A stretch of DNA of 64,000 nt from Clostridiaceae bacterium (GCA_012519745.1 JAAYPO010000081.1:5096-69095); one strand, 5' to 3'; shown: positions 3,152 through 52,289, counted from the stretch's first letter. A program made the numbers and translations. Notes: generated from the sequence alone by a model not told the origin.

Positions 3152-3372
3152 CACGTCTGGATGAATTTGCAAGTAAGGGCAGTGCCATGAAATCCTAGTG
3201 GATGAATTTGCAAGTAAGGGCATTAATTGTGATATACAATGGAGACATAATGTAAGGTATCGCGATTTATGTAATCTTTTTATGGATTATATGCAACAAA
3301 ATAGTTCATTACCCTACCCTTTCTTGAAAAATCATCCACTAGGATTCTCAACTTGCATTTTAGTCCACCCGG
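3152..3372. repeat. Dispersed repeat element, copy A (canonical orientation)
   Basis: Two direct arms TGGATGAATTTGCAAGTAAGGGCA at 3158-3181 and 3199-3222 (41 bp phase). A conserved core follows. An inverted arm CTTGAAAAATCATCCACTAGGATT lies at about 3323-3348, plus a degenerate second inverted arm at about 3352-3370. Confidence 0.85.
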
Positions 3373-11326: not shown

Positions 11327-12220
11327 CTATCCCTTGATCGCGCCTGCGATCATACCTTTTTCTATTTTCTCCTGTGCCAGAATATAAAACACTATGCTTG
11401 GGATAATGGCCATCATTATTCCGGCGGCCAGCTGCGTATACTCGGAATTGTACTCGGTAATAAAGCCCATCAACCCAATAGGAAGGGTCTTCAATGCAGG
11501 CTTGCTAAGCAGCAGCATGGATACAAGCAATTCATTCCAGCTGGCAAGAACAGCAAGTATGGATATTGTTACGATCCCGTCCTTGGTCAGCGGTACAATT
11601 ATTTTAAAGAACAGCCTGAAGACAGAGCAGCCATCAATAAATGCACACTCTTCCAGTTCCCTCGGCAATGACGTCATGAACCCTTCGAGTATAAATATTG
11701 AGATGGGTATCCTGAATGCTGCATAGATCAGGCTCAGTACTCCAAGATTATTGTACTGGTTCCATTTGCCCACCATCATGTACAAAGGAATTATTGCCGA
11801 ATGTATAGGTATCATCATACCTGCGATAGCTATAAAGTATAAAAGCTTTTTCCCCTTGAAGTTGAATCTGGATAAAACAAACGCGATGGGTGTTACAGTC
11901 ACAACTGTGATTACTATGGTCAATCCGGTCACTATCACACTGTTGAGCATATATTTATCGATCTTTGAGCCTTTCCATGCTTTCAGGTAGTTGGAAAACA
12001 TCCACTGCTTGGGAGGGCCCCATGTGTTCATAGTCAGGTCAGCCTGTGACTTCAGGGAAGAAAACAGGAGCCAGATCAAAGGCAGCGCTACGATCAGTGC
12101 AAATACCGTCAACACGATATATATCCATACAAGGGTCTTTTTCTTTTCGACTGCAAGCTGCGGACTTGGCATTACCAGCTCATCCGTGCCGCTCACAGCT
12201 TTTTTAGTTTGATTGCCCAT
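11327..12220 (-). CDS. ABC transporter permease (CUT1 type)
   Basis: EAA-like loop ECAFIDGCSVFRLFFKIIVPL. The likely start is MGNQTKK at 12220 with an AAGGTGA RBS. The track ORF extends to 12298. Confidence 0.85.
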   Translation of the reverse strand: MGNQTKKAVSGTDELVMPSPQLAVEKKKTLVWIYIVLTVFALIVALPLIWLLFSSLKSQADLTMNTWGPPKQWMFSNYLKAWKGSKIDKYMLNSVIVTGLTIVITVVTVTPIAFVLSRFNFKGKKLLYFIAIAGMMIPIHSAIIPLYMMVGKWNQYNNLGVLSLIYAAFRIPISIFILEGFMTSLPRELEECAFIDGCSVFRLFFKIIVPLTKDGIVTISILAVLASWNELLVSMLLLSKPALKTLPIGLMGFITEYNSEYTQLAAGIMMAIIPSIVFYILAQEKIEKGMIAGAIKG

Positions 12221-12316
12221 TCGCTTCACCTTTACTATTTTGGTTTTACAGCCATGGCATACCGGCAAGGCCGGTATGCCATGACCGTATTGTGTCAATT
12301 GATACTTACAGTATGC

Positions 12317-27939: not shown

Positions 27940-29760
27940 TTATGCCTTGCTTCTCGATTTTGCCCTCTGCTCGGTGTCGAGTATCCTCTTCCTTAGTCTT
28001 ATGTTCTTGGGGGTTATCTCAACAAGCTCGTCTTCCGTGATGAACTCAAGTGCCTGCTCAAGGCTCAGTACCCTTGGCGGCGTAAGCCTCAGTGCATCAT
28101 CCGAGCCCGATGCCCTCATATTTGTCACATGCTTCCTCTTGCACACATTTACAACGATATCTTCATTCCTTGCATTCTCACCGACTATCATTCCCTCGTA
28201 TACCCTGGTACCGGGAGTTATGAACAGATTTCCTCTCTCCTGGGCGTTGTACAGGCCGTATGTCACTGCCTCGCCATCCTCCCATGCCACCAGCGAACCC
28301 CTTTGTCTGCTGGATATCTCTCCCTTATACGGTTCATGGCCATTAAATATATGATTCATTATACCATTGCCCTTTGTGTCGGTCAAAAACTCCGAACGGT
28401 ATCCGATCAGGCCTCTTGCCGGTATCTTGAATTCCAGTCTCATGTAGCCCTCGGCAGCTGAGTGCATGTTCACCATTTCCGCCTTACGGCTCCCGAGCTT
28501 TTCCATGACAACGCCCATAAACTCTTCGGGTACATCTATCATAAGCAGCTCTATCGGCTCGTAATCGACTCCGTCCACATCCTTCATTATGACCTTGGGC
28601 TTGGAAACCTGGAACTCGTAGCCCTGCCTTCTCATTGTCTCAATGAGGATCGACAGGTGCAGCTCACCTCTGCCCGACACCTTGAAGGAATCAGCAGTTT
28701 CAGCTTCCTCGACCCTAAGACTTACATTTGTCTCCAGCTCCTTGAACAGTCTGTCCCGCAAATGTCTGGAGGTCACATATGTGCCCTCTCTTCCGGCAAA
28801 CGGGCTGTTGTTGACGCTGAATGTCATGCTCAGGGTCGGCTCGTCAATATTGACAAAGGGCAACGGCTCAGGAGCCTCCACATCACAGATCGTCTCTCCT
28901 ATATTTATCTCACCAAAGCCTGATACCGCCACTATATCGCCTAATTCAGCCCTTTCGCTTTCAGCCCTTCTCAGCCCTTCAAACTTGTAAAGCTTGCTGA
29001 CCTTTGACTGGTAAACTGTTCCGTCCCTTCTGCATATGACTGCCTGCTGTCCGGTCCTCATGCTGCCTCTGTCGATCCTGCCGATGGCGATCCTGCCGAC
29101 ATACTCATCATAATCAATATTGGACACCAGCAATTGCAGCGGTCTGTCCATTTCACCTACAGGTGCCGGTACATAATCGATGATCGTCCATATCAGAGGT
29201 TCGAGATCCTTCCTTTCATCGTTCAGATCCATTACCGCATATCCGTCTCTTGATGAGGCGTATACTACCGGGAACTCCAGCTGGTCATCATCGGCACCCA
29301 GTTCGATGAACAGCTCCAATACTTCATAGATGACCTCTTCTGGTCTTGCCTCCGGTCTGTCGATCTTGTTTACCACTACTATGGGTTTGAGATCGAGCTG
29401 CAAAGCCTTCCTCAACACGAATCTGGTCTGGGGCATCGGCCCCTCGAAAGCATCCACAAGCAGCACGACTCCATCCACCATCTTCAGCACACGTTCCACT
29501 TCTCCGCCGAAATCCGCGTGCCCGGGAGTGTCTACGATGTTTATCTTCAAACCCTTGTAATTGACTGCAGTGTTTTTTGCAAGTATCGTGATGCCCCTCT
29601 CTCTTTCAAGGTCGTTGGAGTCCATCACACGTTCCTGTACCTGCTCATTGGCTCTAAAAATACCGCTTTGGCGCAGCATGCCGTCTACCAGAGTTGTTTT
29701 TCCGTGATCGACATGTGCTATTATCGCTATATTTCTAATATCCTCTCTTTTATCTGCCAC
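27940..29760 (-). CDS. typA: Translational GTPase TypA/BipA
   Basis: [33 protein letters not shown] and NKIDR G-motifs. The likely start is the GTG at 29760 (GGAAGGG upstream). The track ORF extends to the ATG at 29835, which has no RBS. Confidence 0.92.
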
Positions 29761-29887
29761 GGTGTTCGTCCCTTCCAGTCCATATACCTCTAGTGCATAA
29801 TATATTTGACTTAAAATCGCTTGTATTTGTTGCATTTATACCTGAATTTAGTATAAACCTGCCCGGTCTCCCGAATACAACAAGATA

Positions 29888-29916: not shown

Positions 29917-29983
29917 ACAAAATCAAAATCGCCTGCCCGGCCGGACGGCATAAAAAGGTAACGGCCGGTTCCCCCTGACAAAC

Positions 29984-30255
29984 GACTGTTTTTTCAAATA
30001 AGGGCATCACACCCCTGACCGACTGGATGATTTTCCAGGTAGGGGCATCACACCCCTGCCCAACTGGATGATTTTTCAGGTAAGGGCAGCCATAAAAATT
30101 CTAGTGGATGATTTTTCAAGTAAGGGCAGGAAATCTGGCGATTTTATTGAGCATAATCCATAAACAGAATACATAATTCGGGATATCATACATTATGTTG
30201 CCTTAAAAAGACAACATCTATGCCCTTACTTGCAAATTCATCCAGTAGGATTTTT
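29984..30255. repeat. Dispersed repeat element, copy B (inverted relative to copies A and C; expanded arm array)
   Basis: Arms TGGATGATTTT(T/C)CA(A/G)GTA(A/G)GGGCA start at 30024, 30065 and 30105 (41/40 bp phase), plus a partial arm at about 29986. The core is the reverse complement of the copy A/C core. An inverted arm TGCCCTTACTTGCAAATTCATCCAGTAGGA lies at 30221-30250. Confidence 0.85.
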
Positions 30256-30330: not shown

Positions 30331-30355
30331 AAAAGCCCCCTGCAGTATCACAGGG
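30331..30355 (-). terminator. Weak hairpin plus T-run after the HD-GYP regulator gene
   Basis: Minus strand reads CCCTG-tgatactg-CAGGGG followed by CTTTTC. Confidence 0.35.
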
Positions 30356-30392
30356 AGCCGGCGGTACTTCACTTAGCAGGCAGAGAATACAT

Positions 30393-31901
30393 TCATTCGT
30401 AGGTTGCAGCAGTCTCTGTAAGCATCCTGCTGTAGCCGGTGCCATCGATCAGATCCAAAAACACCGGCACGACATATGCGTCGAATTGGGTTCCGGCACC
30501 ATTCAAAAGCTGCTGTCTGGCATCTTCCAGATTCAGCTTGGATCTGTAAAGCCTGTCGGACATCATGGCGTCAAAGGCATCGGCAACCGATATTATCCTT
30601 GCCAGCAGCGGTATTTCATCACCCCTCAGCCTTTCCGGATACCCGGTGCCGTCCACCCTCTCATGATGGCACTTTACGATGGGGACCACATCCTTGAACA
30701 TGGAAACCGCCGAAAGTATGCGGGCCCCTTTGAGGGGGTGCTTCTGTATCTCTATCAGTTCACGCTCGTTGAGCTTGTCCGTCTTGAGCAGGATATCATC
30801 GGCGGTCCCTATCTTCCCGATGTCATGGAAGATGCCGCTTATCCTCAGCGTCTCCAGATCTTCACAGGGTATGCCGATGGCTTCGCCGATCTTTACTGAA
30901 TAGTACGCCACACGGTCAGAATGCCCTCTTGTGTAAATATCCTTAGCGTCCACAGCCTGCCGCAGCGCTTCTATTGTGTCCATGTACCTCAGCTTCAGCT
31001 GATCATAGGTTTTGTTGAGCTCGTCATTTTTCATATTGACCAATGAATGCATAAAGGCATTGTTTACAGACGATGCGGCCTGGCTTGTATATATCTCAAG
31101 GAGCTTTATGCCCTCATCAGTATTCTTTCCCTCAACGTAAATAACGCCGATCGTCTGGTTCACTTCGTTATTGAGCGGGAAGATCACACCATCCTCCAGA
31201 TCTATCCTGCGCTTTGTTATCCTTGCATTTCCGATATGCTCCATCAGGCTTGGGCTCAGCATCTCCATGAAATGGTTTATTTCCGCCCTGTATTTCCCGA
31301 TTCCCTTGAAAATACTCTTGTTTCCCTCGATCAGCCCAGTGGTGTCATCAACGAGTATGAATGCGTTCTCGCTGTCTACAAGAGGCATTATTTCCGTAAG
31401 TATATCCTCGAGTATCATATCGATGGGCTGAAGTGAGTAAATCTTAGGAACAGCCCTAAGAATCTCATTTAGGCCATCCCTGAATTTTCTTATCGTCCTC
31501 ATCTGAGAAATGGATTTGATACCGGATTCCACTAACAGAAGCAGCTGGTCGAACCTGTCGCTTTTTTCACAATAGCCCTGTATATCCAGCGCTCTGATGG
31601 TTTCAAGGGGAGGGGCCAGATCCTTATGACCGGTAAGCAGCAGTATATATATATCCTTATTGAATTCTCTGATCCTTTGAACCACCTTATCTCCGTGGAT
31701 CGGGTACATCAGATAATCCAGGATCATCAGGTCATAGTTCCCATTCCGGACTCTTTCTATGGCTTCGAGAGGATCTATGATGCCTGTAAAATCATATCCG
31801 CTGCGTTTGAGCACAACTGACAGCGAATCTATGATGCCTATCTCGTCGTCCACGACAAGCACTTTATAGTTCAGTGAATCGGCATGTAACTTCTTTCTCA
31901 T
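30393..31901 (-). CDS. Response regulator: REC, GAF-like middle region, HD-GYP (putative c-di-GMP phosphodiesterase)
   Basis: REC (VLVVDDE...DLMILDYLMYPIHG). HD-GYP (HSDRVA..., FHDIGKIG, HHERVDGTGYP, ...VADAFDAMMSDRLYR). The start ATG overlaps the kinase stop (ATGA). Confidence 0.88.
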   Translation of the reverse strand: MRKKLHADSLNYKVLVVDDEIGIIDSLSVVLKRSGYDFTGIIDPLEAIERVRNGNYDLMILDYLMYPIHGDKVVQRIREFNKDIYILLLTGHKDLAPPLETIRALDIQGYCEKSDRFDQLLLLVESGIKSISQMRTIRKFRDGLNEILRAVPKIYSLQPIDMILEDILTEIMPLVDSENAFILVDDTTGLIEGNKSIFKGIGKYRAEINHFMEMLSPSLMEHIGNARITKRRIDLEDGVIFPLNNEVNQTIGVIYVEGKNTDEGIKLLEIYTSQAASSVNNAFMHSLVNMKNDELNKTYDQLKLRYMDTIEALRQAVDAKDIYTRGHSDRVAYYSVKIGEAIGIPCEDLETLRISGIFHDIGKIGTADDILLKTDKLNERELIEIQKHPLKGARILSAVSMFKDVVPIVKCHHERVDGTGYPERLRGDEIPLLARIISVADAFDAMMSDRLYRSKLNLEDARQQLLNGAGTQFDAYVVPVFLDLIDGTGYSRMLTETAATYE

Positions 31902-33925
31902 TTATCCTCCTCCTGATTGCCGTATGTTATACACGGTATGGATATGAAAAACGTTGTACCGCATCCTTCCTTTGTAATGAAAGACATATTGCCCCCAAAC
32001 CGTCCCCTTATGGTGGCATAAGACATATAAAGGCCCAGTCCCGTACCGTTTTTGCCCTTGGTGGTTATCATCTCCTTGAACAGCCTGTCTGCGACATTTT
32101 TCGGTATTCCTTTCCCGTAATCCTTGAAGGTGAACTCCACATTGTCACCGCTTCGAACTATTTCCAGGTCAATGGTTCCGTTTTCTCCATCGTATGCCTG
32201 CATTGCATTGATAATGATATTATCAAACACCTGGACCAGATTGTTGACTTCTCCTTTGATCTCAGTGCTGGCATCAACATGCGAGTTGATTTTTAATATA
32301 CAATGGTACCTCTTCAACTCATGCTTCAGCAGCAGTTCGACACGCTTTATTACCTCATCGACAGTAAATTTGACACTGTTTGTGGATATCATCTGTACAG
32401 CCTGTCCCTTTACTGCCGATATGACATCCGACATATATGCGCAGTATGGCTTCATTTTTTCCAGCCAGGTCAACATCTCTTTTGCGATCTCTCTATGATC
32501 CTGGTCTGTTACGCTCCTGTCGCCGACGGAGTCCCTGTACTCGTATGCCAGATCCTTGAGAGCCTCTATCCCGCCTGAAATAGACATTATTGGTGTCTTG
32601 AGATTGTGTGCGATGCCGCCGATCAGCTGCCCCAGGGATGCAAGCCTTTCCTGCTCTATCAGGATCGCCTGCTGCTCCTTTATCGCCTCGATACTGCGTT
32701 TCTCAAGATTCTGTATTTTATTGAATGCAATAACAAGATCCCCTATTTCATCATTGGATGTTATCACCAATCTTTTTTCGAAGGTCTGATCAACGCCCGA
32801 TGCAATTTCCTCCAAATTCTGAGTTACTCTGGAGATATCGTCTGTAAGGGTCTTGGCAAAGTAAAGTATGACAATGAAATTTATAACAAACAGCGCCGCA
32901 AAGCTGATAGCAAAAAAGGTAAGTGTTTCATCGGAACCAACCAGGTATCTGGCTCCAATCACCCAAATCTGGTCATCTATTAAAACTTGCTTGGCGATCC
33001 CCTGTGCATCTACTCCATAATAGTCAAATACATGGCCATCTGTACTTAACGCGATCTCATTCATATGCTTGATGAAAAATTCACTCAACTGTGGAAATCC
33101 ACTGTTTGTGATAATCTGGCCGTCTGAAGGTGGTATAATAAAAACCTCATCGCCTTGACTGACTAATACAATTTTGTCCAACAATCCGACAATATCATCT
33201 TTTGTTTTGATATCCCTTTCCAGCGCTTCTGTTATTTCGTAATCATATAATTTAAAGATGATCTCACCTTTTTCTTTAATAAGTCTTGAATAACCAATGA
33301 GGGATACAAACAGCAATGCAACTATGAATATCGGGATCAACTGTATAATAATCTTAACTTTTAAAGATAGCTTGGAATTGTTTTTATATTCATGAAAACT
33401 AGTTTTCAACAGGATCCTGACATATATTTTTTTTGTGAAAATATATGAAAACGTTGCTATGAGAGTCCCCAGTGAAAAAAACATGATCCAAAGCTTAAAG
33501 GTAACAGTAGTAATATTCTTTGTAGATATGGTTATTATCGTAATTATAAAAACACTGGGCAAAAAGCTTTGGACAATATATGCCACAACCGGAAACTGTA
33601 TGCACCTTATTCTTATTGCTTCAATTTTGCTAAGATCTTTTGAGTATATCGTATTGTCAAAATTATATAGGCACCTTAAGCTGTAGCATAACCAAATATT
33701 TAAAAATATAATGGTCAATAAGGTAATCAGTATATACTGCTGTGTGTATTTTGTATTTTCAAGTTCCCATTGAAATTGAGTATCATAAGTAAACTGAGGA
33801 TAATTAAGAATAAGAGGAATCAATTTGTAGAAAAGCAACGACACAACAACATTACATAGATCATGAATAAATAGTATCTTGAGAATAACTGTATTTGCTT
33901 TAATTAGCGATTTGATCCTATTCAT
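31898..33925 (-). CDS. Sensor histidine kinase with a multi-TM N-terminal region and a periplasmic or extracellular segment
   Basis: H-box GGIAHNLKTPIMSI. N, G1 and G2 boxes (NIIINAMQA, DYGKGI, GTGLGLYMS). About 6-7 N-terminal hydrophobic helices. It starts 5 nt after the NRPS stop. Confidence 0.88.
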   Translation of the reverse strand: MNRIKSLIKANTVILKILFIHDLCNVVVSLLFYKLIPLILNYPQFTYDTQFQWELENTKYTQQYILITLLTIIFLNIWLCYSLRCLYNFDNTIYSKDLSKIEAIRIRCIQFPVVAYIVQSFLPSVFIITIITISTKNITTVTFKLWIMFFSLGTLIATFSYIFTKKIYVRILLKTSFHEYKNNSKLSLKVKIIIQLIPIFIVALLFVSLIGYSRLIKEKGEIIFKLYDYEITEALERDIKTKDDIVGLLDKIVLVSQGDEVFIIPPSDGQIITNSGFPQLSEFFIKHMNEIALSTDGHVFDYYGVDAQGIAKQVLIDDQIWVIGARYLVGSDETLTFFAISFAALFVINFIVILYFAKTLTDDISRVTQNLEEIASGVDQTFEKRLVITSNDEIGDLVIAFNKIQNLEKRSIEAIKEQQAILIEQERLASLGQLIGGIAHNLKTPIMSISGGIEALKDLAYEYRDSVGDRSVTDQDHREIAKEMLTWLEKMKPYCAYMSDVISAVKGQAVQMISTNSVKFTVDEVIKRVELLLKHELKRYHCILKINSHVDASTEIKGEVNNLVQVFDNIIINAMQAYDGENGTIDLEIVRSGDNVEFTFKDYGKGIPKNVADRLFKEMITTKGKNGTGLGLYMSYATIRGRFGGNMSFITKEGCGTTFFISIPCITYGNQEEDK

Positions 33926-33930
33926 AATGA

Positions 33931-36900
33931 TTACCCTTCTTTTAAAAAACCTATTTCAATCATATTGCTGATCAATTTTTTTACATAGTTTGATTTAAAA
34001 GTATCGGGCCAGCTTATATCCATTGCTTGAAAAGCCTTCAGCGTTTTCTCATTTCTGGTTTTTATAGAATCATTATACTCAAACCCATTTGAATTGCCTA
34101 TTTCATTGATAATTCCCTCCAGGCTTTGCTGGGCACTTGCATCACTGGAAATATGATTCAGTTTCGTTCTGAATTCCATCTCATCAAGAATTTGTATATT
34201 TGCCAGGTCCAGAGCTTTCAAAATATCAATAAGCGCAGCTAACCTATGCTTTTTATTATACAGATGATAAATACTGTTGATTTGGCCCTTTTTAATAATA
34301 TCGACTATTGACTTGCCGCAGATATCGACCGGAGACATTTCGATTTCGACATTTGCCATCCGTTTTGATATTGCTCCTATCATGATCATTGAATTCAATC
34401 TTCTGCAAAATGCATTCATAAACACATTTTTTTGACAAACACCATCACTATACCTTCCAGTGATGTTTCCCATTCTGTATATGTTTACATCCATCCCATC
34501 GGAAGCTTCCTGCAGTACCAGTTTTTCCGCTTCAAGTTTTGTAGCCAAATAAACATTTTCAAATATATTCTGACCAACAAAAAGATCATCTTCAGTAAAG
34601 TCAGTGACCCCTGTATCATTACCAAATCCATCTGTACCAGAAATGCTTATTGTTGATATATGGTGGAATACCGATTTGGATCTTCTACATAATTTTAGCA
34701 TCTCAAGTGTTCCATTCACATTGGTATCATGGAATTCTGAATATGAGCCGTAGTGCCTGACATTAGCAGCTGAATGAATAATAGTATCAATGCTGCTGCA
34801 TAAAAAGTCATATTTGTTTTCGTCCAGTCCAAGATTGCATTTTGTAATATCACCTCGGAGTAAGAAGATTCTCTCCAATAGTTTTCTGTCAACATCTTTG
34901 AAATAATAATCAATATCATCAGTAATATCATCTTTTCTGACAAGACAATAAACATTAGCATCAGATTCAGCAAGCAAGTAATACAGAATGTGTATGCCCA
35001 GAAAACCTGTCGATCCGGTTAACAGAACATTTTTGAACCTTACCGGGGCTTTGGGCTTTAAAATATCCGGTACACAATGATTGTAGTCATTATTCTTCAG
35101 ATAGTTGATCCTCTCTTGTCTGCTTATCACATTGTCATATAACAGCTCAATTGTCGGATATTTGTATAGATGCTGAGTCTTGATGCCCCAGTTTTCAGTA
35201 TAGGATTTTACCTGTACTTGTATGATATTAAAAGAATCTCCTCCCAAGTCAAAGAAATTATCCTTTATTCCAACTTTAGGAATGCCAAGTACCTCCTGCC
35301 AGATACATGTCATTTTAGCTTCAGTCTCATTTCTGGGCGGCTGATACCGGCTTTCAATTTTCTTTTCATATTTTATTTGCTTTAGAGCATTCTTATCGAC
35401 CTTACCGCTTGAAGTCAACGGCATCTCATCGATCTGTACCAGATTGTCAGGCATCATATAATGAGGTAAAAAAGAGTTGAGAAAATGTTTCAACCTGGCG
35501 ATATCTACCTGTACGTCTGCCGTAAAAAATGCATTAAGCAAGGTGATTTCGCCTTCACATACGCAAGGCAAAACAACTCCATCTTTTATCCCTTCAAATT
35601 TCAGGAGCGCGTTCTCGATCTCACCAAGCTCGACCCTGTATCCATGTATTTTCACCTGATAATCAAGTCTGCCAAGGTATTCGATATCACCATTTGGATA
35701 CCACCTGCCCAGATCTCCCGATCTATACAGTTTTTGCCCCTCGACAAAAGGATTGTCAATGAACCTCTGATTTGTAAGTTCAGCTCTGTTCAAGTAACCT
35801 TTGGCTACTCCTTCACCACCTACATAGATCTCGCCCTTTACCCCTATAGGAACAAGCTGTTGATATTTATCGAGAATATATATCTGTGTTGTTGGTATTG
35901 GTTTACCGATGTTACATGCATTCGAATTAATGATATCTGCTGTAACTTCCTTATATGTAGAATGGACTGTCGTCTCTGTGATCCCATACATATTAACAAG
36001 CTTCACATTGGGATACAATGACTTCCAAGCCTTTAGCTTCGCTGGCTTAAGAGCCTCCCCTCCAAATATGATATATCTTAATGACAGATCATGCTCCTTA
36101 CTATTCAATTCACTGTCCGACAAGTTGTAAAAAGCTGTTGGGATCTGATTTAGTACTGTTGCTTTGTTCTTCCTCAGTAATCTCAGAAACTCTTTAGGAT
36201 CCTGTGCGATAATATGGGGAACTATCACCAGTTTACCTCCATACAGCAACGCGCCATACATTTCCCAAACAGAGAAATCAAAACAATATGAATGAAACAT
36301 CGTCCATACATCGCCGCTGGAAAAGTCAAACTCAAACTTGCTGTTAAATAACAGTCTTACGACATTTTTATGACTTACCTGTACTCCTTTAGGGGCTCCT
36401 GTTGAACCTGATGTATAAATAATATATGCAGTATCTTCAGGTCCGCAGACAGATGCGATTTCAGACACATCTCCGGTATTTGATCCTCTCAGGATATGAT
36501 CCAATATCAAAATGCGGTCAGTATCAAATCCCGTTTGCTCAACCACTTGACAGCTCTTTTTATATTGCGCTTCTGATGATAATAACAGCAGCGGTTTGCT
36601 ATCATTAATAAAATAGCATAGCCTGTTATGCGGATATGAAGGATCAAGAGGAAGATATGTACCGCCGGCTTTCAGAATACCCAAAATGCCGATTATCATT
36701 TCTATGGAGCGGTCAATGATTAACCCTACGATTGTATTTGGCTTAACTCCATTGCTTGACAATATACCTGCGAGTTGTTCTGCTTTCAGGTTCAACTCAC
36801 TGTATGTGATACTTCTGTCATGGTCAATAACAGCTGTATTCTCGGGGTGGGCATTGACTTGATCAATGAACAGCTCATTTATCGTAACAGTTTGTGGATA

Positions 36901-38322
36901 ATCCGCATTAGTATTATTAAATTCTGTCAGTATCCTGTATTTTTCTTTTTCGGACATAATATCTAATCTTGATATCTGTTTATCCGGATTATCTATTCCG
37001 TGCCACAGCAATCTTATTATGTGATCATGCATGAATTCGATCTCTTTAGAATAGAACCTGTCGGTAAGGTAGTCATAATCAATAATAATGCTGCCATCGT
37101 CTTCCCTTTCATTTATATGGATATACAAGGGAGTGACCTGTCTCCCGTTAAAGTGCCATCTGCCCTCATTTTGCAGCATTCCATCATCTTTTGTTATTTT
37201 TGCATTCTGATATGATATCAGTATTTCATAAAGCTCATTTGATCCCATGTTATCCTGTTTGCTTTTTTTGATCAGTTCGTATGGATATCTTTGATGCCTC
37301 AGTATAGACATCCATTCCTGGGTAATTCCCGATACAAACTCTCTGAATGATATTGAATCATCGATATTGATGCTAAACGGTATTGTATTTACAAACAAAC
37401 CACATGTATTCTTTTCTCTGGCATTTAGCCGGTTTAGTACAGGCACCCCTATGACATGCCCGAGAGTGCCTGTAGCTCTGGCAAGATATATTGCAAGCGC
37501 AGACATCAGCAGCGAAACTAAAGTTGTTCTATTACATTGCATGTATTCATACAATTTGACTGCCAGCTTATTGGGAACAGCAAAGGTTTTTCTTTTAGCT
37601 TCAGTACTGAATTGCGTCGATCTGCTTCTGTAAAAGAGATTATTTGTTAACGTAAGGCTGCTGAATCGTGCATCCCAGAAATCCTTGTCGGCAATAAATC
37701 TTGGTGAGCTTAAATACTCTTTCTCTCTATTGATCAAGTCCAAATATGTCGATGTTTGATTATCATAGTCATTACTATTCAACTTCAGATCATTATAATA
37801 GCCCATGATATAGTTGGCAGTCTTCACGATAGACCAGCCATCGGTAATTAAGTGATGGAATTTCATATAAATGCCAAATTCGTCTTCACTGACCTTAACA
37901 ATAGCAAAATAGCACAAATCACATCCCATCAGTTTAAATGGGATCTTCGACTGTAACTCATCCCACTCATACAAGCTTTCTCTTCCTTTTTGACTAAAGT
38001 CAACGAAATCTATTTTGCGATAATCATATTCAGTAAAATATTGGAAAGGCTCACCGTCTATTTCTGTGAAATGCAGTCTGAAACAATCGTGATTCTTAAT
38101 CAGCAGATTTATCGATTTTTCTAACAAACCAATATCGACTTTTTCTTTGATTTTCAAAGTTGCGGCGACAATACCGATGCTGGTACCGGGATACATTTTC
38201 TCAGTATACCAGATACCCAATTGAGGATGAGTCAATGGATAGCAAATAGCATTCTTATTCACAGCTGACACCCCATTATCATTTGTAAAAAATAAATAAC
38301 AAAATAATCCTATAATTAGCAT
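33931..38322 (-). CDS. Single-module nonribosomal peptide synthetase, C-A-T-R (terminal thioester reductase)
   Basis: C: HHLITDGWS. A: YIIYTSGSTGAPKGV, NMYGITETTVH, GEIYVGGEGVAKGYL, YRSGDLGRW, KIHGYRVELGEIE, LPHYMMP, SGKVDKNAL. T: FFDLGGDSF. R: LLTGSTGFLGIHIL plus YLATK. 1463 aa. Confidence 0.93.
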   Translation of the reverse strand: MLIIGLFCYLFFTNDNGVSAVNKNAICYPLTHPQLGIWYTEKMYPGTSIGIVAATLKIKEKVDIGLLEKSINLLIKNHDCFRLHFTEIDGEPFQYFTEYDYRKIDFVDFSQKGRESLYEWDELQSKIPFKLMGCDLCYFAIVKVSEDEFGIYMKFHHLITDGWSIVKTANYIMGYYNDLKLNSNDYDNQTSTYLDLINREKEYLSSPRFIADKDFWDARFSSLTLTNNLFYRSRSTQFSTEAKRKTFAVPNKLAVKLYEYMQCNRTTLVSLLMSALAIYLARATGTLGHVIGVPVLNRLNAREKNTCGLFVNTIPFSINIDDSISFREFVSGITQEWMSILRHQRYPYELIKKSKQDNMGSNELYEILISYQNAKITKDDGMLQNEGRWHFNGRQVTPLYIHINEREDDGSIIIDYDYLTDRFYSKEIEFMHDHIIRLLWHGIDNPDKQISRLDIMSEKEKYRILTEFNNTNADYPQTVTINELFIDQVNAHPENTAVIDHDRSITYSELNLKAEQLAGILSSNGVKPNTIVGLIIDRSIEMIIGILGILKAGGTYLPLDPSYPHNRLCYFINDSKPLLLLSSEAQYKKSCQVVEQTGFDTDRILILDHILRGSNTGDVSEIASVCGPEDTAYIIYTSGSTGAPKGVQVSHKNVVRLLFNSKFEFDFSSGDVWTMFHSYCFDFSVWEMYGALLYGGKLVIVPHIIAQDPKEFLRLLRKNKATVLNQIPTAFYNLSDSELNSKEHDLSLRYIIFGGEALKPAKLKAWKSLYPNVKLVNMYGITETTVHSTYKEVTADIINSNACNIGKPIPTTQIYILDKYQQLVPIGVKGEIYVGGEGVAKGYLNRAELTNQRFIDNPFVEGQKLYRSGDLGRWYPNGDIEYLGRLDYQVKIHGYRVELGEIENALLKFEGIKDGVVLPCVCEGEITLLNAFFTADVQVDIARLKHFLNSFLPHYMMPDNLVQIDEMPLTSSGKVDKNALKQIKYEKKIESRYQPPRNETEAKMTCIWQEVLGIPKVGIKDNFFDLGGDSFNIIQVQVKSYTENWGIKTQHLYKYPTIELLYDNVISRQERINYLKNNDYNHCVPDILKPKAPVRFKNVLLTGSTGFLGIHILYYLLAESDANVYCLVRKDDITDDIDYYFKDVDRKLLERIFLLRGDITKCNLGLDENKYDFLCSSIDTIIHSAANVRHYGSYSEFHDTNVNGTLEMLKLCRRSKSVFHHISTISISGTDGFGNDTGVTDFTEDDLFVGQNIFENVYLATKLEAEKLVLQEASDGMDVNIYRMGNITGRYSDGVCQKNVFMNAFCRRLNSMIMIGAISKRMANVEIEMSPVDICGKSIVDIIKKGQINSIYHLYNKKHRLAALIDILKALDLANIQILDEMEFRTKLNHISSDASAQQSLEGIINEIGNSNGFEYNDSIKTRNEKTLKAFQAMDISWPDTFKSNYVKKLISNMIEIGFLKEG
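33934..35031 (-). other. NRPS terminal reductase (NAD-binding, SDR-type) domain, approximate bounds
   Basis: TGSTGFLG Rossmann motif and a Y..K catalytic pair (VYLATKLEAE). Confidence 0.7.
35128..35331 (-). other. NRPS thiolation (PCP) domain, approximate bounds
   Basis: GGDS motif with the phosphopantetheine-attachment Ser at aa 1030. Confidence 0.7.
35368..36900 (-). other. NRPS adenylation (A) domain, approximate bounds
   Basis: Core motifs A3-A10 as listed for the CDS. Bounds estimated. Confidence 0.75.
36958..38244 (-). other. NRPS condensation (C) domain, approximate bounds
   Basis: YPLTHPQLGIWY start motif and HHxxxDG at aa 156-162 (nt 37837-37857). Bounds estimated by motif position. 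Confidence 0.7.
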
Positions 38323-38393
38323 TATATTGATTTTCCCGAAAAATTACAAGAAAAAGATATGAAATTTTGCTAAAAATTTCACGATATTTGGAA

Positions 38394-40778
38394 TCACTTC
38401 ATTATGACGATTGTTACACCGGATTCACCTTCACCATATTTCCCAAGTCTGAAGCTCTTTACATGGCGATTGGATCTTAAATATTGATGTACACCGTTTC
38501 TGAGCATGCCCGTACCCTTGCCGTGTACGATAGTGACCTCGGAAAGGCCGGCAATGGCAGCATCATCCAGAAACTTTCCAAGCTCCAGGACAGCCTCCTC
38601 CACATTCATGCCCCTTATGTCGGTCTGAGTCGATATGTGCATCGCCTTGTTCATACCTATCCTGCCGGAGCCGATCTTCTGTATTTCCGCAGCCTGATCA
38701 TCCACCAGCTTCAGGTTTGAAACATGTACGTTTATTTTCATGATGCCGGCCTGTATAATGGCCTCGCCGTCCTTGTCAGGGGGATTCACCACAGTCCCCT
38801 TCTGATTCAGATTGATTATCAGCACACTGTCGCCGGGCTTCAGGTTTTCAGGCGGCTTAACGAAGCCCTTTCTTGGCATAAGGTTCTCTGACAAAGAGCT
38901 TTCAAGCTCTCCGATGCTGTTCCTTAACCTGGCTCTTACCTCCATTGCCGCCTTGTTCTGCAGTATTTCATCCTGCTCTTTTGCCGCACGCTTCATCTCC
39001 TCGAGCATGCTCTCGGTGTCCTGCTTCGCGTTGAGCAGGATCCTTCTGGCCTCTTCCCTTGCTTCCCGCAGCAGCCTTTCCTTCTGCGTGTGCAGCTTTT
39101 GCTTTTGCTGCTCCAGTTCCTTTTTCAGCCCTTCGATCTCCAGCCTGTAGCTTTCAGCCTGCAGTCTCTCCTTCTCTGATTCGCTGCGGTTTTTCTCTAT
39201 CTTCATCAATACATCTTCAAACTGTATCTCTTCACCTGATAAAAATTCCCTTGCTCTGTCAAGTATCTCCTCCTGCAGCCCCAGCCTCTTTGAAATGGCG
39301 AATGCATTACTTTTTCCCGGCACACCGATCAACAGGTTATACGTCGGTCTCAGTGTCTCAACATCAAATTCACAGCATGCGTTTTCAACACCTTCAGTAG
39401 TCAGCGCATACACCTTGAGTTCACTATAATGAGTGGTAGCTACAGTGATCGCTCCTGTGTCGTGCAGATTTTCCAGTATAGACATTGCCAGTGCCGCGCC
39501 CTCTGTAGGGTCAGTCCCGGCTCCCAGCTCGTCAAAGAGCACCAGGGACCTGTCATCAGCTTCAGACAATATCTTTACAATGTTCTTCATATGTGATGAA
39601 AATGTGCTCAGACTCTGCTCAATGCTCTGCTCATCACCTATATCGGCGAAAATATCGTGGAATATGCTCAGCTCAGTTCCCTCCGCCGCTGGAACGTGGA
39701 GACCGGCCTGAGCCATCAGTGTAAACAGGCCGACTGTCTTGAGGGTCACTGTCTTACCACCGGTATTTGGCCCTGTGACGACAAGTGTATTGAAGCTTTC
39801 GCCTGCCCAGAGGTCTATAGGCACCACGGTCTTGCTGTCCAGCAGAGGGTGCCTGCCTTTCTTTATCTTGATCCTCTTCTCATCATTGAGCCTGGGACAG
39901 ACGCAATTGTAATCAAGACTGAGCTTTGCCTTGGCAAAAGCAAAATCAAGGGCCGCAAATATTGACATGTTGATCTTCAAAGGCTCAACTATTTCTGCCA
40001 CATCCGATGTCAATTCATGCAAAATACGCTCTATTTCGATCTGCTCCTTAATCTTCAGCTGCTTGATGTTATTATTGGCCTCTACCACAGCCATGGGCTC
40101 AACGTAGACCGTAGCGCCGCTGGCTGACGAATCATGCACCAGCCCAGGAACTTCGTTCCTGCATTCGGCCTTGACCGGCACTACATACCTGTCCCCCCTT
40201 ATGGTCACAAGGGATTCCTGCATAAGCTTCTGATACTTGGAGGAATGTATCATCGAATTGAGCTTTTCCTTGATGGAGTTCTGATGCTCCTTGATCTGCC
40301 TTCTGATGTTTGCCAGGGTATTGCTGGCACTATCGGCAATCTCCTCTTCACTCGCTATTGCAAGATTAATCTTGTCCTCGATACGCTTATTGGAGGTCAG
40401 ACCGGCGATCAGCTCTCCTATGTGATCGTTGGCCTCATTTTCTTCAGAGCTCACGGCAGATGAATAGTTCTTCAGGTTTCTTGCTGTCCGCAGAGTATCA
40501 GAGACCCTTAGCAGTTCGCCGGGAGTGAGCATCGAGCCGATCTCGACCCTTTTCAGACTGCTCCTTATATCATGCAGCCCTCCCAGGGGCGGATTCCCTC
40601 TTCGCAGTATAAAATCCACTGCGTGAGTGGTTTCTCTCAGCATCCTTTCGACCACAGAGTACTGTCTTTCGGGAACGACTTCTTCTGCCAGTTCCTTTCC
40701 CAGCTCCGAGGCACATAAGCTTTTAAGTCTGTTGATTATCTTGTCGAATTCCAGTATTCGAAGCGTTCTCTCATCCAT
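38394..40778 (-). CDS. mutS2: Endonuclease MutS2 (MutS domains plus C-terminal Smr)
   Basis: Walker A GPNTGGKT, DELGAGTDP, a coiled-coil region and a C-terminal Smr domain (..DIRGMNVEEA...VTIVHGKGTG.L). Confidence 0.93.
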   Translation of the reverse strand: MDERTLRILEFDKIINRLKSLCASELGKELAEEVVPERQYSVVERMLRETTHAVDFILRRGNPPLGGLHDIRSSLKRVEIGSMLTPGELLRVSDTLRTARNLKNYSSAVSSEENEANDHIGELIAGLTSNKRIEDKINLAIASEEEIADSASNTLANIRRQIKEHQNSIKEKLNSMIHSSKYQKLMQESLVTIRGDRYVVPVKAECRNEVPGLVHDSSASGATVYVEPMAVVEANNNIKQLKIKEQIEIERILHELTSDVAEIVEPLKINMSIFAALDFAFAKAKLSLDYNCVCPRLNDEKRIKIKKGRHPLLDSKTVVPIDLWAGESFNTLVVTGPNTGGKTVTLKTVGLFTLMAQAGLHVPAAEGTELSIFHDIFADIGDEQSIEQSLSTFSSHMKNIVKILSEADDRSLVLFDELGAGTDPTEGAALAMSILENLHDTGAITVATTHYSELKVYALTTEGVENACCEFDVETLRPTYNLLIGVPGKSNAFAISKRLGLQEEILDRAREFLSGEEIQFEDVLMKIEKNRSESEKERLQAESYRLEIEGLKKELEQQKQKLHTQKERLLREAREEARRILLNAKQDTESMLEEMKRAAKEQDEILQNKAAMEVRARLRNSIGELESSLSENLMPRKGFVKPPENLKPGDSVLIINLNQKGTVVNPPDKDGEAIIQAGIMKINVHVSNLKLVDDQAAEIQKIGSGRIGMNKAMHISTQTDIRGMNVEEAVLELGKFLDDAAIAGLSEVTIVHGKGTGMLRNGVHQYLRSNRHVKSFRLGKYGEGESGVTIVIMK

Positions 40779-48309: not shown

Positions 48310-49374
48310 TTATACCTCACAACTGTTGATAATGAAAATGCTTGCCTGCTCAGAAAGGTCGATTTCCCTTGGCAATGCCAGACGCTGCATTTTTTCGTCA
48401 TATACTATGCGCACCAAAGGTCTGGTAGGCATTTTCATGTTTTCCCTGACAACAATGGCTCGCTCCTTTGTATTGAGCAGCACACCTGTTCCCACAGGAT
48501 AAACAGTGACATATTTGACGAAGCTCTCCACTACCTTGGGATCGAAATGATATATGCCCAGAGAAGTGATATATTCGTATACTTCATGAGGCTTTAGCTT
48601 CTTCCTGTAGACACGGTCCGAAGTCAAAGCGTCATAGACATCCGCTATCGCCACTATCCTGGCAAAAATCTGTATGTTCTCACTTTTCAAATGCAGGGGA
48701 TATCCGCTGCCGTCATATCTTTCATGATGTCCCAGCGCGATATATGCAGAAGTCATATTCAGTCTGTCACATTTTTTCAGCATATCATATCCCAGTATGG
48801 TATGCTTCTTGATCTCCTCAAACTCATCTACCGTCAGCTGGGAGGGTTTCTTTAAGATCTCCCTGGGTATGCAGAGCTTTCCGATATCATGCATCATAGC
48901 ACCGATCCCCAGCTCCTTGAGTCTTTCCGTATCAAAGCCTAGTCCGATGCCGGTAATAAGTGAAAGGATGCATACATTTACCGAATGCTCGAATGTATAA
49001 TCATCCACCGACTTTATTTCTGTAAGATTATACAGGATATCACCATTGCTGATGAGCTCATCTATGATTTTATTGACCATTGCTTTAACTTTTTCGACTT
49101 CTTCAGTCACAGAAAAATTATAGCCGGTCATCATTTTTTTAACCAGGACCACTGCCTCATTGCGAGTTTCATCATTGACCACATCATTCACTTGGATACC
49201 TTGGGAAATGTCATCCTCCAGATATACTTCAGAAATACCGCGCTTTCTTAGCTGCTCAACATAGCTCTCTCTCAGCTCAACACCCTTTTCAAGCAACACG
49301 CCGCCGTCAGAACTGAATATCGTCCTGGCCAGCTTGATACCTACAGGTATTGAGTCGACACTTACTCTGCGCAT
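48310..49374 (-). CDS. HD-GYP domain protein (putative c-di-GMP phosphodiesterase), stand-alone
   Basis: HSVNV..., MHDIGKL, HHERYDGSGYP, IADVYDALTSDRVYR. Confidence 0.88.
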   Translation of the reverse strand: MRRVSVDSIPVGIKLARTIFSSDGGVLLEKGVELRESYVEQLRKRGISEVYLEDDISQGIQVNDVVNDETRNEAVVLVKKMMTGYNFSVTEEVEKVKAMVNKIIDELISNGDILYNLTEIKSVDDYTFEHSVNVCILSLITGIGLGFDTERLKELGIGAMMHDIGKLCIPREILKKPSQLTVDEFEEIKKHTILGYDMLKKCDRLNMTSAYIALGHHERYDGSGYPLHLKSENIQIFARIVAIADVYDALTSDRVYRKKLKPHEVYEYITSLGIYHFDPKVVESFVKYVTVYPVGTGVLLNTKERAIVVRENMKMPTRPLVRIVYDEKMQRLALPREIDLSEQASIFIINSCEV

Positions 49375-49550
49375 CTTATCCTCCGTTTTATACGTCTTGA
49401 CTTTATATCATATTCGACAAAGTAAGATAAAATCCTTCACATATACGAATAAATGATAAAAAATTATCAAATTTATGAATAAATATTCACGGATCCATCG
49501 TACGGGAAATATGTGATTATTTTGTTAATTTATGGTATTATACTGGTACT

Positions 49551-52082: not shown

Positions 52083-52289
52083 TCCTGGTGGATGAATTTG
52101 CAGGTAAGGGCAGCTCAAAAAATCCTGGTGGATGAATTTGCAGGTAAGGGCAGAGATTTCATTATGTTACAGTAACATAATACTCAATATCTCGATTTAT
52201 GTATTCTAATTATGGACCATATGCAATAATATTGCTCTAAACCAATCAGTCATCTTACCCTTAGTTGCAAATTCATCCACTAGGATTTT
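52083..52289. repeat. Dispersed repeat element, copy C (canonical orientation)
   Basis: Arms TGGATGAATTTGCAGGTAAGGGCA at 52089-52112 and 52129-52152 (40 bp phase). A perfect 10-bp hairpin ATTATGTTAC-a-GTAACATAAT. The core is about 80% identical by eye to copy A. An inverted arm TTGCAAATTCATCCACTAGGA ends at about 52286. Confidence 0.85.

Follow-up and report, generated by a model that had tools for sequence, protein, structure and literature searches.

In a 64,000-nucleotide stretch of DNA from a Clostridiaceae bacterium (GCA_012519745.1 JAAYPO010000081.1:5096-69095; hereafter the window, with positions counted from its first letter), three genes on the minus strand encode, in this order, a non-ribosomal peptide synthetase (NRPS), a sensor histidine kinase and a response regulator with an HD-GYP domain. 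Comparison with related loci shows that the NRPS together with the kinase's sensor half constitutes an exchangeable cassette, which is carried across species on a conserved chassis of kinase transmitter and regulator. Each version of this cassette brings a different predicted amino acid and a different sensor. The conservation of the three linked genes marks them as a widespread module of the Clostridia, with a predicted function in signaling. We consider it reasonably probable that they constitute a producer/sensor circuit, in which the product of the NRPS would be read by the co-encoded kinase, with cyclic di-GMP (c-di-GMP) as the output.

The three genes are co-oriented and tightly coupled, and are located between mutS2 (38394..40778) and typA (27940..29835). 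The NRPS gene is annotated at 33931..38322 (-), the kinase gene at 31898..33925 (-) and the regulator gene at 30393..31901 (-). The junctions are as an earlier note on this DNA had described them: the kinase ATG at 33925 lies 5 nt (TCATT) past the NRPS stop codon TAA, and on re-reading the sequence the kinase stop and the regulator start were again found to overlap in ATGA. The kinase ATG is preceded by the Shine-Dalgarno sequence GAAGGG. In a consensus scan only, a promoter-like TTGTAA-17-TATAAT was recognized at 38321..38349 (-), within a region that is ~85% identical to relatives with another cassette, and a terminator-like hairpin with a T-run (30334..30359, (-); 11 pairs, 6 of them G-C), 34 nt past the regulator stop, likely marks the operon end. 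Because of the 5-nt gap with its Shine-Dalgarno sequence, the ATGA overlap and the presence of one promoter-like and one terminator-like site at the ends, the genes are predicted to form a single operon. The absence of accessory genes from this operon, as previously claimed, is borne out by its mutS2 and typA flanks, and a search for sequences resembling a phosphopantetheinyl transferase (PPTase) across the 64-kb window returned none.

The kinase is composed of two halves of very different conservation. Pfam recognizes HAMP, HisKA and HATPase_c, and no Pfam family matches amino acids (aa) 1-355. The sensor half (32711..33925, (-); aa 1-405) consists of five N-terminal transmembrane (TM) helices, an alpha/beta extracytoplasmic domain of ~95 aa (~236-331), a sixth TM helix and the HAMP domain (356-403), and is followed by the transmitter half (31898..32710, (-); aa 406-675), which comprises the DHp domain with His440 (IAHNLKTP), the catalytic (CA) domain matched by HATPase_c, and the stop codon. 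This topology was derived from hydropathy and from two AlphaFold models, which are in agreement (full-length kinase, pLDDT 79.9; sensor half alone, pLDDT 89.6 and pTM 0.85). Foldseek returned no match of the sensor-half model to the PDB at E <= 0.001; the weak PDC/Cache-like matches were not used for the ligand type. Among 1.84 billion proteins, the 6-TM sensor domain has 205 representatives, in which it is nearly always N-terminal and the full-length proteins measure ~670 aa. By these counts the 6-TM sensor is a small dedicated family, found essentially only in this kinase architecture.

The regulator combines REC (14-122), DUF3369 (126-286) and HD-GYP (HD_5; 312-476) domains, with the full HD-GYP signature (HDIGK at 359, HHERVDGTGYP at 412), and intact HD-GYP motifs are found in all linked regulators examined (63/63). 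According to Pfam it is without a DNA-binding domain. A role of the two-component system as transcriptional regulator of the cluster was considered and rejected, given this lack of a DNA-binding domain and of a riboswitch in the window; an Rfam scan of the whole window for c-di-GMP or other riboswitches yielded no family at the gathering threshold.

The exchange of the cassette is visible in three relatives (L011, L013 and L014; loci of our survey are given by such numbers), whose kinases match that of the window with 88-95% identity over the catalytic 40% of the protein and begin with an unrelated HisKA_7TM N-terminus. Their DNA is ~82-86% identical to the window in mutS2 and on into the NRPS gene for ~500 nt, again from kinase codon ~410 to past the regulator, and from typA onward. 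Outside the cassette they are as near to the window as is L001, which has the window allele throughout. Between 37830 and 32700 they hold a 2472-aa two-module NRPS, with the domain order C-A-T-C-A-T-R (condensation, adenylation, thiolation and thioester reductase domains), and a HisKA_7TM sensor. The breakpoints are located at ~37830, inside the C domain, and at ~32700, in the kinase, and delimit an AT-rich specificity cassette (32700..37830, (-)) that extends from just past the HHxxxDG motif of the C domain through the A, T and R domains to the sensor half. In all alleles, diverged sequence gives way to conserved sequence at kinase aa ~395-420, the HAMP/DHp junction, and at the left edge conservation is limited to the initial part of the C domain.

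The remainder of the locus behaves differently from the cassette. Where close relatives occupy the same site, identity in the catalytic half and the regulator keeps pace with that of the housekeeping flanks (75-95%), and the aa identity of these flanks across alleles is 70-94% for mutS2 and 81-94% for typA. L019 is 86% identical to the window in mutS2, 90% in the catalytic half and 90-94% in the regulator, yet its A domain and its sensor are only 35% identical. The more distant L008 and L018 reach 70% in mutS2, yet 53% in the A domain and 45% in the sensor.

Further alleles occupy the same site in the clade, and versions can be told apart by A-domain code and sensor. The threonine-type, one-module version with the code DFWNIGMVHK and a 6-TM sensor is carried by the window, L001-L008, L015, L017, L018 and L025. 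Two other one-module versions, an asparagine-type (L019 and L021; DLT(V/K)IGEVGK) and a glycine-type (L022; DILQLGVVWK), also have 6-TM sensors, which are 35% and 34-36% identical to that of the window, respectively. A serine-type, one-module version (L038, L043 and L070; DVWHFSLIDK) is joined to a HisKA_7TM-PAS sensor. The two-module version of L011, L013 and L014 combines DIAQLGGIYK with the proline-type DVQFIAHVVK, and two-module versions with other codes are present in L044, L081 and L084, in all cases with a HisKA_7TM sensor. Within a gut and rumen clade (L036-L094), additional codes occur to which we have assigned no amino acid (DIFLIGLVYK, DIFQMAGIFK, DVYYGGMVGK and DVAYLGGICK).

Base composition follows the same boundaries. 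The GC content of ~0.47-0.50 falls to 0.27-0.40 across ~32900..38400, a block that includes the NRPS gene but, of the kinase gene, no more than the initial ~340 codons, i.e., the sensor half. The composition of TM helices was rejected as the sole source of the low GC content in the sensor half, as the low GC content extends over the whole NRPS gene and its step is located at the recombination breakpoint. Relative to L001, dN/dS values of 0.096 (NRPS), 0.091 (kinase) and 0.045 (regulator), next to ~0.05 for mutS2 and typA, indicate that all three genes are under purifying selection. In the same comparison dS drops to 0.25-0.36 for the R domain and for the sensor half of the kinase (32711-35031), as against 0.8-1.0 elsewhere in the locus and its flanks, and these low values may reflect extreme AT bias or a more recent exchange.

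The co-variation of synthetase and sensor can be quantified among the 63 loci with a 6-TM sensor. The distance between sensor halves correlates with that between A domains (r = 0.855) and R domains (r = 0.889), and less with that of the kinase's own catalytic half (r = 0.436). In partial Mantel tests, sensor and A domain remain correlated given the catalytic half (r = 0.83, p <= 0.0005), whereas catalytic half and A domain, given the sensor, are not significantly correlated (r = 0.03). Sensor clusters (>=45% identity) correspond nearly one-to-one to A-domain code families, and the mixed clusters include threonine with serine codes. For pairs of loci at 75-85% catalytic-half identity, sensor identity is 72% where the codes are the same versus 32% where they differ. 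L022 illustrates this pattern: its sensor (52%) and A domain (53%) are nearer to those of Dehalobacter, likewise of the glycine type, than to those of its own clade-mates (35-36% and 42-43%), whereas the catalytic half shows the reverse (69% to Dehalobacter versus 82-85% to the clade-mates). The joint inheritance and exchange of NRPS and sensor half favor the earlier proposal that the kinase senses the NRPS product, and we infer from them that such recognition is quite probable, if variants in which a cell senses only its own product are counted in.

The linkage of the three genes extends far beyond the clade of the window. A scan of species representatives (one genome per species) with an alignment of the kinase identified relatives in at least 590 genomes, and the best-scoring 80 loci were surveyed. 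An NRPS A domain is located upstream on the same strand in 69/69 loci with at least 4.6 kb of upstream DNA, an R domain abuts the kinase in 65/69, and REC and HD-GYP domains are encoded directly downstream of the kinase in 57/66 loci with enough downstream DNA. The possibility, raised in the earlier note, that orthologues might never be linked in other genomes is thereby reversed for both pairs, NRPS and kinase (69/69) and kinase and regulator (57/66). The hosts are uncultured Clostridia/Bacillota of biogas digesters, of the rumen, and of the gut of rabbit, chicken and human, among them Clostridium sp. CAG:508. At the mutS2-typA site, NRPS homologues occur at 86, 59, 58, 52 and 47% identity, each with an adjoining kinase, and the regulator is present in all except one on a truncated contig. 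Dehalobacter has the same gene order in an unrelated neighborhood (NRPS 42% identical), and at still further sites a HisKA_7TM kinase and a REC-HD regulator come after abundant NRPS homologues of two modules (C-A-T-C-A-T-R), for which BLASTP gives 29-45% identity to the NRPS of the window. Because the same order recurs in these unrelated genomic contexts, the linkage does not appear to be a matter of mere shared ancestry.

This recurrence also bears on the view that an AT-rich NRPS island has come to lie by accident beside a pre-existing two-component system, with no functional link. The drop in GC content over the NRPS gene would fit such an event, as would the IS607-like element (MerR/resolvase and OrfB/TnpB genes; L004, 16464-18205) that lies between kinase and regulator in a 58%-identical relative and splits the operon. 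However, the AT-rich block takes in the kinase's own sensor half, and the same arrangement is present in all examined relatives, and at several sites on the chromosome, so that accidental adjacency is highly improbable.

The surveyed loci vary in several further respects. In the Dehalobacter loci L009 and L010 (9253-9918), and in L023 and L024, an Sfp-type PPTase gene lies immediately upstream of the NRPS gene; this is the only accessory biosynthetic gene seen beside any member. The regulators of L036-L094 match REC and HD-GYP and show no match to the DUF3369 segment of the window; kinase and regulator genes are separated there by ~55-370 nt (1024 nt in L076), with no overlap. The two-module loci L095-L098 encode REC-HD_5 regulators of ~350 aa. 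Some genomes (L030, L028 and L026) hold two or more paralogous sets side by side: in L030, another kinase and another C-A-T-R NRPS come after the set of NRPS, kinase and regulator, and L028 has three tandem REC-HD-GYP genes. Such side-by-side sets suggest multi-channel systems.

Several observations weigh against a circuit of product and cognate kinase. The linkage counts describe the top of a much larger set of relatives. The adjacent regulator is missing in 9/66 loci, and L035 has a kinase without an upstream NRPS. Among distant loci that share the threonine code, sensors are 32-36% identical, no closer than those of loci with other codes, and the sensor can therefore not be predicted from the amino acid alone. 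Adjacency could account for part of the co-variation between NRPS and sensor, with the conserved DHp domain and C-domain N-terminus as recombination anchors. A regulator identical to that of the window is found on 23 contigs, and among the 10 places listed those that reach upstream share one cassette; in this limited sample, alternative cassettes were seen only between species (~82-86% flank DNA identity). The operon holds no exporter gene, and an N-acyl group in the product is a guess, the subtype of the C domain being ambiguous by comparison with the PDB (see below).

Two of the loci with deviating gene content can be described further. In L017, a threonine-type locus at the same chromosomal site, the regulator gene is gone and typA comes right after the kinase (11989-12273). 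In L035 (114-2649), the kinase/regulator pair is preceded by a ThiF-family protein and, further up, by a weak match to PilZ, a c-di-GMP receptor (22.3 bits; cut-off 22.5).

Some of these points would fit a kinase that reads an unrelated external or envelope cue, the NRPS being merely co-expressed and its product acting outward, for example as a protease-reactive aldehyde directed at competitors or at a host, a role that has been proposed for the peptide aldehydes of gut Clostridia. The co-variation would then be a by-product of adjacency, in line with the position of both breakpoints in conserved sequence, as homologous recombination predicts, and with the dissimilar sensors of distant same-code loci; related gut NRPSs that end in a reductase have moreover been reported to make dipeptide aldehydes (PMC12327764). 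However, adjacency alone gives no reason for a link that is kept in 69/69 loci, in unrelated contexts and down to ~30% sensor identity. Nor would a sensor of a generic cue be expected to match the synthetase in variability next to a conserved catalytic half. Each of the two sensor types, which are structurally unrelated, goes with particular NRPS types, and the 6-TM sensor is essentially confined to this kinase architecture. We therefore regard an unrelated cue as unlikely, and favor recognition of the NRPS product by the kinase.

The likely nature of that product can be approached from the domains of the synthetase. The earlier description as a single-module NRPS of 1463 aa with the full set of core motifs is supported by Pfam domains and motifs. 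The true start is probably the GTG at codon 21 (38262), giving 1443 aa, because the -10 box of the promoter-like sequence overlaps the annotated ATG and an 86%-identical homologue is called at 1443 aa. The C domain (36931..38241, (-); aa 28-464; PF00668, 2.1e-82) carries HHLITDG at aa 156. The A domain (35401..36864, (-); aa 487-974) matches PF00501 (2.6e-91; AMP-binding, 487-844) and AMP-binding_C, scores 436 bits against TIGR01733 (cut-off 317), and has the motifs A3 (TSGSTGAPKG, 637), A5 (NMYGITE, 777), A7 (YRSGD, 866), A8 (884) and A10 (Lys974). It is followed by the thiolation (PCP) domain (35134..35310, (-); aa 1005-1063; PF00550; GGDS at 1027) and the thioester reductase domain (33943..35031, (-); aa 1098-1460), with TGSTGFLG at 1102 and YLATK at 1258. 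The R domain matches PF07993 (NAD_binding_4; aa 1101-1338, 5.1e-49), and its match to TIGR01746, 187 bits, is under the cut-off of 213.35 bits. By its family, it would release the product reductively, as an aldehyde or alcohol.

The specificity code of the A domain, with positions assigned by motif anchoring, reads DFWNIGMVHK (aa 682, 683, 686, 725, 752, 754, 778, 786, 787 and 974), which we take to be identical to the canonical threonine code at 10/10 positions. The binding pocket, disruption of which had been considered earlier, is intact and of the threonine type. The C domain begins at aa 28, and no A-T or carrier gene is present in the operon or conserved beside its relatives. In a further check suggested by the earlier note, the C domain matched a starter position: identity is 37-41% with the first C domain of the two-module relatives L026, L030, L032 and L033, against 22-24% with their internal C domain. 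Assignment of a subtype from sequence matches to the PDB was attempted and abandoned as ambiguous, the matches being a mix, at similar E-values, of the elongation-type TycC and Txo with 7c1h/7c1k. The latter we take to be starter-type, their deposited name being only 'Non-ribosomal peptide synthetase modules'. The pyrazinone route that had been mentioned is unlikely for a single-module enzyme that begins with a C domain, and an N-acyl amino aldehyde or alcohol fits better.

Taken together, the circuit would operate as follows. The NRPS would be primed by a PPTase encoded elsewhere, and L-threonine would be loaded and N-acylated by the starter-position C domain from acyl-CoA or an acyl carrier protein (acyl-ACP). 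Reductive release would give an N-acyl-threoninal or, after a second reduction, the alcohol; we propose this product on the basis of the order of domains, the A-domain code and the lack of a partner carrier protein. The amphiphilic product would then be recognized by the kinase through its 6-TM and PDC-like sensor module, a step suggested by the co-inheritance of NRPS and sensor half. Autophosphorylation of the kinase on His440 and phosphoryl transfer to the REC domain of the regulator would switch the HD-GYP phosphodiesterase and change cellular c-di-GMP levels, in line with the functions already established for these domain families. The window encodes a second HD-GYP protein (48313-49407, (-); 365 aa, HD_5 only, no REC) beside the DNA polymerase III alpha gene, and the organism therefore appears to have further c-di-GMP phosphodiesterases.

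The loop may act either as an intercellular autoinducer or as feedback on the producing cell. In a strictly cell-autonomous version, the kinase would read the product for feedback or self-protection, responding to the membrane load of a lipid-like product or to a reactive aldehyde. The lack of an exporter in the operon, a largely intramembrane sensor with six TM helices, the predicted amphiphilic character of the product and the absence of within-species pherotype polymorphism among the contigs with identical regulators would all be in accordance with such a role. However, the output is a second-messenger phosphodiesterase and not a function in efflux or detoxification, and selection for private signal-receptor pairs accounts for the diversity of cassettes better than does the sensing of toxicity. 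We thus hold a purely cell-autonomous loop to be distinctly unlikely.

The earlier note knew of no comparable architecture, and here it had overlooked the Rpf/DSF system of Xanthomonas, which follows the same logic with a different synthase. In that system, RpfF is the synthase, RpfC the sensor kinase and RpfG a REC-HD-GYP regulator. Both systems cluster a synthase gene with a multi-TM kinase and a REC-HD-GYP regulator, and the output, predicted in the present case, is c-di-GMP hydrolysis rather than DNA binding. They differ in that RpfF is a crotonase-family enzyme, whereas the only biosynthetic gene of the window operon encodes an NRPS, and in that RpfC is a hybrid with REC and HPt domains, whereas the kinase of the window is an orthodox HAMP kinase (HAMP, HisKA, HATPase_c). 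Furthermore, the window regulator has the extra DUF3369 domain, the hosts are Clostridia and not Proteobacteria, and loci of the window type exchange synthase and sensor as a cassette.

The exchange itself resembles that of the agr groups of Staphylococcus and the comQXP pherotypes of Bacillus, which involve ribosomal peptide signals, DNA-binding regulators and within-species polymorphism. In each case the signal-production genes and the sensor half are hypervariable, the catalytic half and the regulator are conserved, and the breakpoint lies within the kinase gene. In contrast to these systems, window-type alleles were seen to differ only from one species to another (~82-86% DNA identity), the near-identical strains sampled all have the same cassette, and the predicted signal is non-ribosomal with c-di-GMP as the predicted output. 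A 21-mer scan of metagenomes, with a conserved regulator segment, for near-identical strains with other cassettes gave two chance matches in unrelated loci. Diffusible signals from NRPS-type enzymes are also found in the Pvf system of Pseudomonas, in which PvfC is an A-T-R NRPS, and the Vfm system of Dickeya, the signal of which is sensed by the VfmI/VfmH two-component system. Both differ from the window in enzyme architecture, multi-gene clusters, DNA-binding outputs and proteobacterial hosts.

Among known enzymes, the best NCBIfam resemblances are to MxcG (myxochelin) and the terminal module of AusA, which share the C-A-T-R order and align over nearly the full length. The resemblance is one of domain order only, both scores being far below the equivalog cut-offs (AusA, 685.9 vs 2500; MxcG, 591.2 vs 2300). 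MxcG requires an aryl-carrier partner, whereas no carrier partner is encoded in the window operon or conserved near any relative. Peptide aldehydes of the gut are reportedly interpreted as inhibitors of host proteases. Gut-Clostridia NRPSs that end in a reductase are described, as cited in PMC12327764, as makers of dipeptide aldehydes and pyrazinones (Guo et al., 2017) and of ruminopeptin (Schneider et al.), and dipeptide aldehydes are reported for related two-module NRPSs of gut bacteria (PMC12327764). These enzymes share the terminal R domain with the window NRPS, and two-module homologues belong to the same linked family, with kinase and HD-GYP neighbors; the window enzyme, in contrast, is single-module and would make no dipeptide or pyrazinone by itself. 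A full-text literature search for the NRPS-kinase-HD-GYP unit in Clostridia, or for its cassette exchange, found no description, although Guo et al. (2017) may contain a passing mention.

The window also contains a dispersed intergenic repeat in tandem units of ~41 nt with the core TGGATGATTTTTCAGGTAAGGGCA, located at 3158-3338, 29983-30249 and 52089-52152 (9 matches vs 0 expected by chance), with an inverted copy at 30221-30244. One copy lies between the regulator terminator and typA, in a spacer (~30303-29933) that is without an aligned counterpart in L013. The repeat looks REP/MITE-like, and a search of plasmids with the spacer that bears it gave no match.

The native role of the abundant reductase-terminated NRPSs of gut and digester Clostridia is an open question, to which a product that serves as signal offers a testable answer. 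To our knowledge, little has been charted of cell-cell signaling among the strict anaerobes of the Clostridia apart from agr-type peptides and AI-2. Tentatively, and with more reserve than for the circuit of the window, we put forward that the clostridial enzymes of this type, including the two-module 'peptide aldehyde' relatives of the gut, may serve primarily to make the autoinducers of a large quorum-sensing family. As a natural series, the cassettes (Thr, Asn, Gly, Ser and X-Pro versions, two sensor architectures and one conserved transmitter) provide ready-made specificity swaps, and are a possible source of orthogonal signal/receptor pairs for engineered anaerobic consortia. NRPS products that are read by the neighboring kinases would also supply ligands for two uncharacterized sensor domains, the 6-TM type and HisKA_7TM. 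If the wider proposal of a quorum-sensing family is true, each such NRPS would be paired with a cognate kinase and HD-GYP regulator, private 'dialects' would arise by cassette exchange, and non-ribosomal chemistry would be tied to c-di-GMP lifestyle control in hundreds of anaerobic species of gut, rumen and digester.

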